Sequence record: OP197928
DNA length: 64,000 nucleotides
Direction: 5' to 3' (one strand)
From: Shigella phage A2
Positions 2,448-64,000 of this stretch are shown here, one piece after another. Below the pieces are notes generated by a model. It saw only the letters and a list, made by a program, of their open reading frames with translations, was not told the DNA's origin and did not search any database. The position numbers and the translations under genes were made by a program. The first letter of the stretch is position 1. Every line of letters begins with the position of its first letter.

Positions 2448-4267
2448 TACTGGCTCATCCATTCTTTACGAAGGTCAGCATTATCTCCCATGAGCATTTC
2501 AAAAAGCTCTTTCCAGTTCTCAGGAAGTTTAACAACATCATATACTGGGTTTTGAATCATCTCACGATATTCAGATTTTTCCAAAGAGCCAAGTCCCTTA
2601 ATATAACGGATGCTATGTTTAGGTAGAGCATCTTTGGCACTCTCATATTCAGCAACTGTATAAAACCATTCTTGTTTTTTACCGACCTGAGCGATGATTA
2701 CAGGAGTTTTGACGAAGCGAATTCTTCCTTGTTCAAACAGTTCTGGCCAATTACTAAAAAATCCGAGCAGAGAAGGATAAATGCTTCCTAGACCATCATG
2801 GTCAGCATCAGTCATAATAGCAATATTATGATAATTCAAGTTTTCAGCCTTTTCACCAAGAACTAATCCAGTGATTGCGCAAATATCAAACAGTTCTTTG
2901 TTTTTAAGCATATCAGCATATGACATACCCCAGCTGTTAAGAACTTTACCGCGCAATGGATAACCACCATGAAGTTCTTTATCGCGAACATCAATAAGAT
3001 ATCCGATAGCAGAATCACCCTCAGTCAAGAAAAGAGTAGTGTCAGCATCTTTACCACAAAGATTCGCTTTAATATGTTTATGAACCTTAGCTTTAGAAGC
3101 CTTTTTAGCTGCTTTAGTTTCTGCTGCCTTTTCTGCTGCCAATTTACGAGCCAAGGCAGCTTCAATAATTGGCATTAAAATTGCTTCATTATTTAGAATA
3201 GCGCGTGAAATCTTTTTAGCATCAAGCTGAATATGACTACGAATTTCGCCAAATGGAGAAGTCAAACGCTCTTTAGTTTGAGAATCAAATCGCATGTTTT
3301 TCATATCACGGACAAACATAACGATAGTCAAACATTCTTTGACACGTGCTTTAGTTACATCAATTTTGAACTTACGTTTGATTTGTGGAATAAGGTCTTC
3401 ACAAATATCATCCATAACACAGTCAATGTGATGGCCACCATTCTTAGTGTGAATGTTATTCACGTAAGTTAATTGACGAAATCCATCCGGTGAACGACCA
3501 ACCGCAATAGAACAATTTTCTTGTTCTTGAACAATAGCATGTTCATCATACTGTCGTGCATATTTCTTAAAATTGCCCTGAACCTTTTTACCGTTAAAGG
3601 TAAATTGAATATCAGGATAAACAACAGCAAGTGTCTGGAGACGATCTAGTGTAATGTCAAGATAAACTTGGGACAGCTCATTAGTTTCAAATGACATAAA
3701 ATCTGGAATGAAAGTAACACGAGTTCCTTTCCATTTTCCAGGAATATCTTCCCATGATTTATTTTCCATGCCGTTTGAACAACGAACTACAATATTATTT
3801 TGACCGTCGCCAGTTTCACCGACAAACATCACAGAAAAAATGTTAGTTAAACTAGAACCAACACCATTCATACCGCCAGTGACGCGTTCTTTATCATCAC
3901 CAAAGTTACCACCTGCTTTTGGAATAGTCCAGGCAGCAACAGGACCAGGAATTTCTTCACCAGTAGGTGTTTTAACCATCGCTTGTGGAATACCGCGACC
4001 ATTATCTTCAACTGTTACTTGATTATTTTTAATAGTAACATTAATTTTATTTGCGAATTTAAACTTAGTACGAATACCTTCATCTACTGAGTTATCGATA
4101 ATTTCATCAATAAGCTTAACAAGACCAGGTACATACTGAACACTTTCCCATTTACCAAACAGAAAGCGCTCATGCATTTCATTAGCTGAAGAGCCAATGT
4201 ACATGCCGCTACGCTTTTTGATATGTTCAATATCGCTCAGAATTTTAATTTCATTCTTAATCATCAC
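2447..4267 (-). CDS. 39: DNA topoisomerase II large (ATPase) subunit, single 606-aa ORF equivalent to T4 gp39 plus gp60
   Basis: GHKL ATPase motifs (IDNSVDEG, VEDNGRGIP, GGMNGVGSS); uninterrupted reading frame through the region that is split in T4. Confidence 0.9.
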   Translation of the reverse strand: MMIKNEIKILSDIEHIKKRSGMYIGSSANEMHERFLFGKWESVQYVPGLVKLIDEIIDNSVDEGIRTKFKFANKINVTIKNNQVTVEDNGRGIPQAMVKTPTGEEIPGPVAAWTIPKAGGNFGDDKERVTGGMNGVGSSLTNIFSVMFVGETGDGQNNIVVRCSNGMENKSWEDIPGKWKGTRVTFIPDFMSFETNELSQVYLDITLDRLQTLAVVYPDIQFTFNGKKVQGNFKKYARQYDEHAIVQEQENCSIAVGRSPDGFRQLTYVNNIHTKNGGHHIDCVMDDICEDLIPQIKRKFKIDVTKARVKECLTIVMFVRDMKNMRFDSQTKERLTSPFGEIRSHIQLDAKKISRAILNNEAILMPIIEAALARKLAAEKAAETKAAKKASKAKVHKHIKANLCGKDADTTLFLTEGDSAIGYLIDVRDKELHGGYPLRGKVLNSWGMSYADMLKNKELFDICAITGLVLGEKAENLNYHNIAIMTDADHDGLGSIYPSLLGFFSNWPELFEQGRIRFVKTPVIIAQVGKKQEWFYTVAEYESAKDALPKHSIRYIKGLGSLEKSEYREMIQNPVYDVVKLPENWKELFEMLMGDNADLRKEWMSQ

Positions 4268-15846: not shown

Positions 15847-15854
15847 TATTTATA
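15847..15854 (-). promoter_or_regulatory. late promoter (TATAAATA) for soc
   Basis: exact TATAAATA on minus strand about 30 nt upstream of soc ATG. Confidence 0.6.
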
Positions 15855-16024
15855 TCAGTCTTCAATGAAAACTTGTGCTAGGAATTCGTGTTCATCATGA
15901 ATTTGTTTATATAAAGCCATTACAGCATTTATATTAGAGCTATCTACTTTAAGCTGATAAGCATACCACTCGTGTAAATTAATTAAAGCTTTTTGTCGTC
16001 TAATAAATTCTTCTTTGGATATTT

Positions 16025-16225
16025 TCATTTTGAATGCTCTATAATTAATTTTAAGGCTTCTTCACTGACAAAAATTTCATCAGGACCTTCTTCTACAACC
16101 CAATCAACCACACGAAGCTGATTAGATAAGAGCTCACATACGAGCTCCTTGTCATAATTTTTAAATAGCTGGTCAATACGTTTCTTGTGGGCTTTCTTAA
16201 GCTGGCGTTTATTTAAACGAGCCAT
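16025..16225 (-). CDS. hypothetical protein, 66 aa
   Basis: minus-strand ORF upstream of soc. Confidence 0.4.
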   Translation of the reverse strand: MARLNKRQLKKAHKKRIDQLFKNYDKELVCELLSNQLRVVDWVVEEGPDEIFVSEEALKLIIEHSK

Positions 16226-16743
16226 TAATAACCTCGGTCTTGACGAGCGAAGTTTTCAGCATTTTTCAGATAATAAAGTTTAAAGATTTCTTCAGCCGTA
16301 AGACCGAGACCTTGGAACATGTTCAGAACGAAATGAAGAATATCAATCATTTCGAATTTAATTTCCAACTGGTCTTGTGGAGACAAATCAGTAATTAAAG
16401 TTTCACGGCGTTCACCATGCTGTGACTTCCAAGGTTTCCATACAGCAGATGCATCTTTTTCACCATTGCTCATACCACCAAGAGAAGTCAATAGTTCGCG
16501 GAATTCATCATCAATATAATCTTTCTGATTACGCAGCCAATCAACAACTTCGCCTGCGGTAGCCAAATCATCAGGATGACGGTTATATTCAGGTTTATCT
16601 TTAGCTAAACGAACCTGCAGAGATTTCTGCATATCAAGCATAACCTGCAGCGGGTCTTTTTCATCACCGAGAATATCCCAGTATTCATTTTGAGCTTTAT
16701 CAGCGCCTTCAATCAGTTGTGAACATTCATTAAAGTAAGCCAT
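16225..16743 (-). CDS. 56: dCTP/dUTP pyrophosphatase gp56 (MazG-like), 172 aa
   Basis: ATG 16741-16743 with AAGGA SD; MazG-like core; size matches T4 gp56; MotA-box middle promoter upstream. Confidence 0.8.
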   Translation of the reverse strand: MAYFNECSQLIEGADKAQNEYWDILGDEKDPLQVMLDMQKSLQVRLAKDKPEYNRHPDDLATAGEVVDWLRNQKDYIDDEFRELLTSLGGMSNGEKDASAVWKPWKSQHGERRETLITDLSPQDQLEIKFEMIDILHFVLNMFQGLGLTAEEIFKLYYLKNAENFARQDRGY

Positions 16744-16777
16744 TATTTTTCCTTTCAATTCATGGGTTAGTAGATTA

Positions 16778-16802
16778 ATTATACAATAAATATATAAAGC
16801 AA
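16778..16802 (-). promoter_or_regulatory. middle promoter for gene 56 (MotA box TTGCTTTA, 11 bp, TATAAT)
   Basis: reverse complement TTGCTTTAtatatttattgTATAAT. Confidence 0.6.
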
Positions 16803-16814
16803 TAAGGAGGACAT

Positions 16815-17015
16815 ATGGTACAAAAATTAATGGCACTTGTTAATGCCATAAAAGGTAATAAAAAACGTATAGCTTTTACTATTTCTGCTATGGTAGGAAT
16901 TTTACTCTGGAACTTTATTTTATCACCAATTGCAATTGCGCATGGTGTTAATATTCCAGTAGTTACTCTTGATACATTCGTAGATCTAGCATTTGCTTTA
17001 GTTGGGTTAATTTAA
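16815..17015 (+). CDS. small hydrophobic (2-TM) protein, 66 aa, plus strand
   Basis: AAGGAGG 6 nt before ATG; lies in the 56-61 intergenic gap not covered by any minus-strand ORF. Confidence 0.45.
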   Translation: MVQKLMALVNAIKGNKKRIAFTISAMVGILLWNFILSPIAIAHGVNIPVVTLDTFVDLAFALVGLI

Positions 17016-18040
17016 ATCTTGGCATATTTAGATAGCCGCATTTTAGCCATTAACCCCTGGGCAATATTATTTTTCATATATTCCATAATTTGTTCAGGGG
17101 TTGCACCTTCCTTTCTAATCATATCATTGACATCTTTTGATTTCCAGGGAGATTTATCCCAAAACATAACCCTTTCTCCTGCATCAACTAATTTAGTCAT
17201 TCGTTTGATAGTGTCAGGGTGACGAGGTTCATTATCTAAAACCCACACTCGTCTATCTTTAAATGGAACAACTTCTAGGTCTAATTGACCACCCGTAATA
17301 GCTATACCATTTTCAATAAAAAGTGAATCTATAGGTCCTTCTAGAACATATACATCACCATCTTTAACTCGTTCGACTCCATATATTTTTGTTGCCTCAG
17401 GATAAGCTTTAATGGTGATATATTTTTGAGGAGCATCTTTCTTTAATGCACGTCCTTGAAAAGACTCAGCTTTTCCATTAGCATTATAAATTGGAATAAC
17501 AAGACGAGGCTCAGAAATTTCCTTTTTGTATGTTCCCGGTGCTATGCTATTAACTAATTTAGGCCATTCAGTTGTAAACCAAAGATATTTCCATTTATCC
17601 TTTGGAATACAACGAGCTTTTACATATTTTATAATTGGATGGTCTTCCGCCAGTTTATCTAATCTAACACATGACGGAAGAGATTTAATTATTTTCTTCT
17701 CAAGTTGTTTAGGAAGTTCTTTAGGTTTTTCTACTGGACGACTTTTACCTTTTTCTTTTCTTATTTCAAAGATATACTCACGATATAAATCAGGTTCAAA
17801 CTCCTTTAAATATATTCCGATTGGTGCATGATAGTTACAGTTATAACAATGAATATTTCCTTCATTATTATCACCATAATACCATCCACGGGCTTTATTC
17901 TGGTCGGTTTTTGAATCTCCACAAACAGGGCATCTAAAACGTAATTTAAAAGTTGAACTATTATTTACTTGTGTGAATTTAGGTAAATGAGCCAATGCAC
18001 GGTATGCAAACTCATTATCAATCCAAGGTATTGATGACAT
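17012..18040 (-). CDS. 61: DNA primase gp61, 342 aa
   Basis: N-terminal zinc ribbon CPVCGDS...CYNC; TOPRIM-like core; 342 aa as T4 gp61. Confidence 0.9.
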   Translation of the reverse strand: MSSIPWIDNEFAYRALAHLPKFTQVNNSSTFKLRFRCPVCGDSKTDQNKARGWYYGDNNEGNIHCYNCNYHAPIGIYLKEFEPDLYREYIFEIRKEKGKSRPVEKPKELPKQLEKKIIKSLPSCVRLDKLAEDHPIIKYVKARCIPKDKWKYLWFTTEWPKLVNSIAPGTYKKEISEPRLVIPIYNANGKAESFQGRALKKDAPQKYITIKAYPEATKIYGVERVKDGDVYVLEGPIDSLFIENGIAITGGQLDLEVVPFKDRRVWVLDNEPRHPDTIKRMTKLVDAGERVMFWDKSPWKSKDVNDMIRKEGATPEQIMEYMKNNIAQGLMAKMRLSKYAKI

Positions 18041-18042
18041 TT

Positions 18043-18207
18043 TTACTCTTCTTTTTCTTTAGATTCCTCTTTCTTCTTTTTAGGAATCTGTTCAGGGCCT
18101 TTATTTACTACAGCACCTGATGTTGTTCCAGTAGAGATATTTTCAGGATTACCACCTGAATCTCCAGCAACCATATCTTCTTTAATAAATTCTTTATATG
18201 TTTTCAT
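18043..18207 (-). CDS. small protein with internal-protein-type capsid targeting sequence (MKTYKEFIKE), 54 aa; not in ORF track
   Basis: ATG 18205-18207 with AGAGGT SD; N-terminus matches CTS consensus MKTYQEFIAE; Gly/Lys/Glu-rich remainder. Confidence 0.5.
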   Translation of the reverse strand: MKTYKEFIKEDMVAGDSGGNPENISTGTTSGAVVNKGPEQIPKKKKEESKEKEE

Positions 18208-18577: not shown

Positions 18578-18871
18578 TTACTCACCTACCACTTCAGCGA
18601 TGATATTTTTGTTATTAAAGTTTTTATCGCAATACAGAACATAATTATACTGCATTACACCACCAGACTTAAGCTGTTTTTGTACTTCAGCTTTCATTTC
18701 AGGACGATCACGCTCAACGATATTCATAATATCCGCTTCAATTTGAGTTTCAACTTCAGTCTGATCTGCAGTCATAGACCATTCACACAAATCTTTATCA
18801 TAACCTGCCATAGCAGGCTGAGCAGCACAAGAAGCCAAAGTAAAAATTGTAGCAAAAATAAATTTTTTCAT
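18578..18871 (-). CDS. sp: periplasmic protein, probable Spackle (Sp, superinfection exclusion), 97 aa
   Basis: signal peptide MKKFIFATIFTLASCAAQPAMA; 97 aa; in the 61.x cluster as T4 sp. Confidence 0.55.
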   Translation of the reverse strand: MKKFIFATIFTLASCAAQPAMAGYDKDLCEWSMTADQTEVETQIEADIMNIVERDRPEMKAEVQKQLKSGGVMQYNYVLYCDKNFNNKNIIAEVVGE

Positions 18872-43245: not shown

Positions 43246-43270
43246 ACCCTTACCTTAAATAGATAAGGGT
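43246..43270 (-). promoter_or_regulatory. hairpin sequestering the gene 49 ribosome-binding site
   Basis: 7-bp inverted repeat ACCCTTA/TAAGGGT whose 3' arm contains the AAGGG SD 5 nt before the gene 49 AUG. Confidence 0.45.
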
Positions 43271-43282
43271 ATTTATTATTTT

Positions 43283-56646: not shown

Positions 56647-56688
56647 ATATACCCCTTTAGTTAGATAAACCTATTTATAACTTTTGCA

Positions 56689-60450: not shown

Positions 60451-60664
60451 ATTTGACTTCCTCGCCAGTACATAAATCGTATTCAACTAAACGAATAGGT
60501 TCATGAATGCCATATCCTTGAACAGAAATTTCTGTCGTAGGATAAATTCCATCAATATCACCCATATTCCAGGCTTCATTAAATTGCTGTTCGCCTGAAT
60601 TACTAAACCACTCGGCGAAAGCATTTAGCACATCTTTAGAACCTTCAATAATTATCTTTGCCAT
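60443..60664 (-). CDS. hypothetical protein (vs-region), 73 aa
   Basis: TAATG overlap with GrcA-like gene. Confidence 0.45.
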   Translation of the reverse strand: MAKIIIEGSKDVLNAFAEWFSNSGEQQFNEAWNMGDIDGIYPTTEISVQGYGIHEPIRLVEYDLCTGEEVKYD

Positions 60665-61026
60665 TACAAACTCTCAGTAAAGGTACGAGCGATAACGTCG
60701 CGCTGCTGTTCCGGAGTCAGAGAGTTAAAGCGAACTGCATAACCAGATACACGGATGGTCAGCTGCGGATATTTTTCCGGATGCTTAACTGCATCTTCCA
60801 GAGTTTCACGACGCAGAACGTTAACGTTCAGGTGTTGACCACCTTCAATTTTAACTGTAGGCTGTGGCTCAATTTCAATTTCACGAGCATGCAAACCGTA
60901 GAAAATTTCTGGGTCTACAAAAGAGTCCTCTTTAAAGGTTTTAGAGACAATAATTCGTGCTTGAATACCATCTTCAAAATAAATAGTACCTTTATGTGTG
61001 CCTTCAAGAATTTGATATGCTTTCAT
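60664..61026 (-). CDS. autonomous glycyl-radical cofactor (GrcA/YfiD-like; T4 Y06I-type), 120 aa
   Basis: C-terminal glycyl radical motif [27 protein letters not shown]; C-terminal half matches E. coli GrcA as recalled. Confidence 0.8.

Positions 61027-63332: not shown

Positions 63333-64000
<668 letters not shown>

Follow-up and report, generated by a model that had tools for sequence, protein, structure and literature searches.

A conserved small open reading frame facing gene 61 in T4-like phages, with a predicted inner-membrane product and a candidate late promoter

The closest described relatives of the open reading frame (ORF) considered here are the hypothetical proteins of T4-like phages that go by the family names RB32ORF030w, RB69ORF029w and PHROG 2024. 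For RB69ORF029w, a single transmembrane (TM) segment at residues 21-41 has been predicted (Nolan et al. 2006, PMC1524935 supplement). With regard to expression, the nearest systems are the T4 late genes with gp55 promoters, such as soc, and the ORF resembles them in having an 8-bp box at the right distance, AT-rich sequence next to it and no need of a -35 element. Fifty T4 late promoters have been reported, of which 32 are perfect and nine have A for T at position -13 (Geiduschek and Kassavetis, PMC2988020); among the variants of T4 late promoters, A(-13) is the most frequent (PMC2988020; PMC1524935), and position -13 is poorly conserved in T4 relatives (Nolan et al., PMC1524935). With regard to the product, the small T4 envelope proteins Imm, Sp, RI and Ac, as well as the holins and pinholins, share with it a similar size and predicted membrane insertion, and, like them, it may act at the envelope. 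All early and middle transcription of T4 runs in the direction opposite to that of the ORF.

We analyzed a stretch of 64,000 nucleotides of Shigella phage A2 (hereafter the window), which is a Tequatrovirus (T4-like) segment. Over 16000-18100 its best match is Escherichia phage PinkRuby (98.4% identity), and the layout of this part is common to hundreds of records. An earlier note, made from the letters alone, had pointed to a plus-strand ORF between genes 56 and 61. This ORF is real and encodes the peptide quoted there (Table 1); the gap, put at about 270 bp, measures 268 bp (16744-17011), and the stop codons of the ORF and of gene 61 overlap within TTTAAA. The AAGGAGG Shine-Dalgarno (SD) sequence was also correctly recognized, although it lies closer to the ATG than the 6 nt given at the time. 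Every orthologue examined has a GGAGG-type SD in this position. As the earlier note had supposed, plus-strand genes are rare: a greedy count gives about 126 ORFs in the window, of which 120 lie on the minus strand and six on the plus strand, and the 66-aa ORF is the only one on the plus strand to combine an ATG with an SD, the others being TTG-started shadows of minus-strand genes.

Table 1. Positions in the window of the 66-aa ORF, its neighbors and the predicted signals around it
Feature	Position	Strand	Basis and remarks
Late box of soc, perfect TATAAATA	15847-15854	-	
Gene 56 (dCTPase/dUTPase), divergent upstream neighbor	16225-16743	-	ORF list, ATG at 16743, homologue annotation
MotA-type middle promoter of gene 56	about 16805-16778	-	TTATTGCTTTA, 11-nt spacer, TATAAT; sequence
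MotA box TGCTTTA of this promoter	16801-16795	-	followed by the 11-nt spacer
-10 TATAAT of this promoter	16783-16778	-	
Late-promoter-like box AATAAATA	16785-16792	+	A(-13) variant of TATAAATA; predicted transcription start near 16798
Shine-Dalgarno AAGGAGG	16804-16810	+	4 nt (ACAT) from last G to ATG; sequence
66-aa ORF (PHROG 2024 / RB32ORF030w / RB69ORF029w family)	16815-17015	+	ATG start; ORF list and sequence; predicted small inner-membrane protein
8-bp hairpin, then T-run; terminator-like, downstream of gene 61	16830-16849	-	inside ORF codons 6-12; terminator scan, RNA fold
Long imperfect hairpin	16993-17064	+	spans the overlapping stops of the ORF and gene 61; T-rich run after it
Gene 61 (DNA primase), convergent neighbor	17012-18040	-	ORF list, homologue annotation

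A homology search of the peptide, as the earlier note had proposed, places it in a known family. Residues 2-66 match positions 1-65 of the 65-position PHROG 2024 profile, that is, its full length (E=1.5e-31), and tblastn against 50,697 phage records finds the peptide in 698 of them, T4 included. The exact window protein has been deposited many times as "hypothetical protein" (e.g., RB68_032) and occurs on 154 public contigs. The ORF is thus an already catalogued hypothetical protein family, ordinary for T4-like phages but under-annotated. The window copy and the family members RB69ORF029w and RB32ORF030w are one gene, identical in position and orientation with respect to gene 61; the window copy differs in directly adjoining gene 56, with the dam cassette absent, and otherwise in nothing of substance.

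The T4 copy is 97% identical to that of the window over 66 aa, with two substitutions, and the tblastn search gave 98.5% identity for T4. In OZ209057, a T4 record of the 2020s, it is called as CDS_0033, flanked by the genes for the DNA methyltransferase and the primase. The T4 reference NC_000866 leaves it uncalled, and the 309 bp from dam to gene 61 (17626-17934) are without annotation; the ORF lies there at record positions 17738-17938 (3239-3439 of our T4 locus, L004). In a cluster look-up, the exact T4 protein was present only in assembly-derived collections and absent from NCBI protein sources. The T4 copy shares with that of the window the SD and the overlap with the gene 61 stop. It differs in having dam as its upstream neighbor, and its box, GATAAATA, overlaps the -35 of the putative early promoter of dam, not the gene 56 middle promoter.

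The earlier note had also presented the ORF as standing in the place of dam. The absence of dam from the 268-bp gap is borne out, and neither a Dam nor a SegF homologue is encoded in the 64-kb window (tblastn, T4 Dam best E = 0.68). The idea of a replacement does not hold and we rejected it: T4 carries both, with the same ORF between dam and gene 61. The absence of gene 69, claimed in the same place, is misleading. "Gene 69" is an obsolete reading, made in 1984 (X01416), of what are today gene 56 and segF; gene 56 is present in the window and segF is absent. At >=90% identity, 182 phage records have T4-type Dam and 502 have the ORF. On the strength of these counts, dam is an accessory cassette between the ORF and gene 56, carried by T4 and about a third of its close relatives, and the dam-less state shown by the window is the commoner one among Tequatroviruses. 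The ORF is found in at least eight genera whatever lies upstream of it, and it is tied to gene 61 and not to the presence or absence of dam. The lack of dam is a separate matter from the ORF, a common variant and not a trade for it. Elsewhere, the interval between soc and gene 56 (15855-16225, minus strand) holds two small ORFs of 57 and 66 aa that are soc.1/soc.2-like; T4 has the homing endonuclease gene segF there.

At nine loci from eight genera, the ORF runs on the plus strand towards the 3' end of gene 61 (tail-to-tail): Tequatrovirus (the window and T4), Mosigvirus (RB69, RB69ORF029w), Gaprivervirus (EAWsc9), Karamvirus (CkP1), Jiaodavirus (JD18), Moonvirus (KM16), Dhakavirus (PSD9), and Kanagawavirus (Q7622). 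The upstream neighbor differs among these loci and may be gene 56, dam or unrelated small ORFs, and 119 bp lie between the ORF and gene 61 in EAWsc9 and 17 bp in JD18. The region beyond gene 61 (18578-18871, minus strand, in the window, and in related loci) holds the counter-defence/superinfection genes 61.1, 61.2 and spackle; it is syntenic across genera and variable in content.

A profile search recovered 117 cluster representatives, mostly of 63-74 aa with a few shorter fragments, and the long contigs among them measure 160-175 kb. Across at least eight genera, protein identity is 27-54% and length is kept at 63-74 aa. In an alignment of 39 sequences, W32, N33, P38, A40, and G44 are invariant and P48 is present in at least 90%. 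Differences at codon positions 1, 2, and 3 number 30, 12, and 39 between the window and RB69 (dN/dS 0.22), 13, 4, and 36 between PSD9 and locus L019 (dN/dS 0.05), and 23, 10, and 37 between loci L009 and L020 (dN/dS 0.12). In moderately diverged pairs dN/dS is 0.05-0.3, more distant pairs being saturated. These comparisons clearly point to purifying selection on the amino-acid sequence. The earlier note had named lack of conservation of the ORF as a ground for refutation; the ORF is conserved, and under such selection.

Ahead of the ORF, the window carries the box AATAAATA and then the AT-rich TATAAAGCAATAA. In most lineages, a NATAAATA box ends 19-22 nt before the ATG, just ahead of the GGAGG-type SD; this distance is 12 nt in JD18-type phages and 16 nt in EAWsc9, and the upstream sequences are not alignable between genera. 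The box is a perfect TATAAATA in PSD9, Q7622, and loci L019-L021, AATAAATA in the window, RB69, the IMG/VR Dhakavirus-type loci (L014-L017) and L011, CATAAATA in EAWsc9 and JD18, and GATAAATA, with G at -13, in T4; ATTAAATA stands at the box position in CkP1, KM16, and L022 (Karam-, Moon-, and Gelderland-type). Counted on both strands of the window, ATAAATA has seven copies vs 40.1 +/- 6.2 expected from dinucleotide-preserving shuffles, a depletion of about six-fold. Five of the seven, the ORF's own included, lie at most about 40 nt upstream of a start codon, and ATAAATA is strongly avoided in the window unless it is used. No sigma-70-like promoter was found upstream of the ORF on the plus strand.

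Because the box is conserved in position, ATAAATA is depleted and the plus strand has no sigma-70-like site there, we infer that a gp55-type late promoter at the box drives the ORF, which would then be transcribed clockwise, counter to all its neighbors, from AATAAATA, with the start about 6 nt downstream of the box. This promoter may be weak or variable, since T4 has G at -13 (GATAAATA), an unusual variant, and the Karam-, Moon-, and Gelderland-type phages have ATTAAATA. The ORF also departs in two respects from the T4 genes with gp55 promoters: its box is the A(-13) variant and a predicted one, whereas the box of soc in the window is perfect, and it is a lone clockwise gene within about 64 kb of counter-clockwise genes. 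The HMM survey of Nolan et al. (PMC1524935 supplement) lists no RB69 late promoter at the position of the ORF. In the searchable literature, we found no transcript, ribosome-profiling or proteomic evidence for the ORF.

Other copies of ATAAATA in the window lie on the minus strand upstream of genes, at 15847-15853 (before soc), 43270-43276, 56672-56678, 63841-63847, and 63854-63860. The only other plus-strand copy, at 60979-60985, falls within the minus-strand gene 60664-61026, which encodes a protein with a glycyl-radical-like motif (RVSGYAVRF) at its end. This copy precedes no credible plus-strand ORF; it could be the start of a late antisense transcript or reflect a coding-sequence constraint.

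The ORF diverges from the MotA-type middle promoter of gene 56, as stated in the earlier note, and its SD, said there to overlap that promoter, abuts it. We took as a MotA promoter the motif (a/t)(a/t)TGCTT(t/c)A followed after about 11-13 bp by a sigma-70 -10, and this arrangement is found upstream of gene 56. The T4 homologue of this promoter is P(M)16.53 of record X01416, and independent annotations of the same promoter exist for SA20RB and fPS-2. T4 oriA is annotated 22 nt inside gene 56, and its primer probably comes from the gene 56 middle promoter; the ORF adjoins the oriA-equivalent region, in keeping with the vicinity proposed earlier. In the window, the plus-strand late box fits entirely into the 11 nt between the MotA box and the -10 of the opposite strand, and the MotA box itself adjoins the SD. 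Such nesting is not general, as the RB69 box stands immediately outside the MotA box. This overlap may be a matter of compaction, and a role in promoter switching is possible. In the dam-less genome of the window, the same 26 bp would serve gene 56 and oriA priming early and the ORF late.

Two hairpins bear on the ends of the transcripts. The shorter one consists of the palindrome ATGGCATTAACAAGTGCCAT followed by TAATTTTTGT; SA20RB and fPS-2 carry independent terminator annotations at this site, RB69 lacks the palindrome, and the hairpin resembles an intrinsic terminator that would end the transcripts of gene 61. The longer one, GGGTTAAT ... ATTAACCC (-19.3 kcal/mol, z = -1.9), lies at a site where the annotators of SA20RB placed a plus-strand terminator, and it might end or stabilize both convergent mRNAs. 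As the overlap of the stops leaves no room for a terminator before gene 61, a late transcript of the ORF would read on into gene 61 from its 3' end, as antisense RNA.

The product would be a bitopic inner-membrane protein of about 7 kDa. AlphaFold2, run on a 39-sequence alignment, gives helices at residues 2-11, 15-42, and 52-63 and a Pro-rich loop at 43-51, with a moderate mean pLDDT of 69. In all lineages, a basic cluster of 4-6 K/R precedes the hydrophobic core and essentially no K/R follows it, and the basic N-terminus would be cytoplasmic by the positive-inside rule. The single TM helix (about 15-42) would carry the invariant W32-N33...P38.A40...G44 motif, and a short acidic/hydrophobic C-terminal helix would lie on or beyond the periplasmic face. 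The C-terminal segment is strongly hydrophobic in Tequatro- and Mosigviruses and weakly so in Karam- and Jiaodaviruses, and in some genera its hydrophobicity is too weak for a membrane span. The "two-helix" hydrophobic peptide of the earlier note is thus borne out only in part: the model has the long helix 15-42 and, at the C-terminus, a helix of 12 residues (52-63), but that the latter spans the membrane is doubtful in some genera. The most economical model is an N-in bitopic protein whose short C-terminal helix is periplasmic or interfacial; a helical hairpin is an admissible alternative.

Searches for a function gave little. Scans of the protein with Pfam, NCBIfam (E<=10) and PADLOC returned no matches, and neither did an Rfam scan of the ORF region; a PDB-sequence profile search gave noise only (YejA, E=0.27), and Foldseek against viral structures (BFVD) recovered the protein's own family only. 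Besides fragments of close homologues, phmmer against 1.8 billion representatives retrieved three further small phage proteins. Three long repeat proteins among its hits (a tandem-repeat protein, one with SH3-like repeats and one with an "LLWNF" beta-propeller-like repeat) were set aside as spurious. No sequence or fold similarity to the ORF protein was detected in Imm, Sp, RI and Ac or in the holins and pinholins, from which it differs in this respect. Imm and Sp are early genes. As a guess held with low confidence, the protein may be a late-acting inner-membrane factor with a part in what happens at the envelope, for example in the timing of lysis, in keeping the envelope intact or in assembly on the membrane; this is drawn only from its inferred timing and location.

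Other explanations of the locus concern its coding status and its RNA. The ORF contains a hairpin that looks like a terminator of minus-strand transcripts, oriA adjoins the region and the T4 reference annotation leaves it uncalled, all of which would suit a frame open by chance in non-coding DNA, be it the 3' untranslated or terminator region of gene 61 or a part of oriA and its promoter. We rejected this because of the dN/dS values and the synteny, and find it scarcely credible: a chance frame would hardly keep 27-54% identity and 63-74 aa over at least eight genera with W-N, P, A, and G invariant, nor show substitutions biased to third positions with dN/dS well below 1 in moderately diverged pairs, nor conserve both SD and ATG, while the hairpin lacks conservation in RB69 and the region has no Rfam match. 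What matters at the locus could also be a late antisense RNA on the 3' end of gene 61, occlusion of the gene 56/oriA middle promoter, or both, with the peptide secondary. Such a role would agree with the tail-to-tail overlap of the stops with no terminator before gene 61, with the late box nested in the middle-promoter spacer and with the transcription of both strands of T4 at some sites at different times (PMC2988020). We judge it unlikely, however, given the purifying selection on the amino-acid sequence, the lack of conserved nesting (the RB69 box is outside the MotA promoter and the T4 box is by the promoter of dam) and the DNA that separates the ORF from gene 61 in EAWsc9 (119 bp) and JD18 (17 bp).

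The timing of expression and the role of the product also admit other readings. The ORF sits in the middle of the early-gene region, as would an early or middle gene read from a plus-strand sigma-70 or MotA promoter, but the plus strand has no sigma-70-like site upstream and a conserved late box there instead, so that we regard early or middle expression as highly improbable. A small, hydrophobic and probably late protein may recall a holin or pinholin, making membrane holes that trigger lysis, and the family is annotated as "holin family protein" in EAWsc9 and as "Holin" for OE5505. Nearly all other records say hypothetical protein, and three defining features of holins are lacking, on which grounds we rejected the assignment and consider it very unlikely. 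There is no profile match, with no Pfam or NCBIfam hit at E<=10 and a structure search that returns only its own family. The charged or hydrophilic C-terminal tail of the holin type is absent, 0-1 K/R following the TM segment and the end being hydrophobic in all six lineages examined. Finally, there is no lysis cassette, the neighbors being the dCTPase and the primase in the window and the position in related loci being on the primase side. T4-type phages, moreover, already use holin T with RI/RIII. A further reading makes the ORF a late envelope factor, such as an additional player in lysis timing, lysis inhibition or membrane-bound assembly, that 60 years of T4 genetics missed because the reference annotation omits it, with a nested late promoter that also helps to shut off oriA priming; this we hold to be distinctly doubtful.

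As a whole, the locus is best explained, and in our view probably, by a genuine protein-coding gene that is present across the enterobacterial T4-like phages (Tevenvirinae), expressed late and with a membrane product. The firmest part of this reading, as judged from sequence comparison, comprises the ORF itself, its strong SD, its conservation at the protein level and its fixed tail-to-tail position with respect to gene 61.

The ORF reveals no new kind of system, and its practical value is one of annotation: NC_000866 omits a gene that is conserved in at least eight genera and under purifying selection, and transcriptome, proteome or knockout-library studies of T4 mapped onto this record will miss it. 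It appears to be the sole clockwise gene in a 64-kb block of early genes. If the late promoter proves true, the ORF would add one more small membrane protein to the T-even late program, and its upstream region would be a compact case of early and late promoters on the same DNA by oriA.
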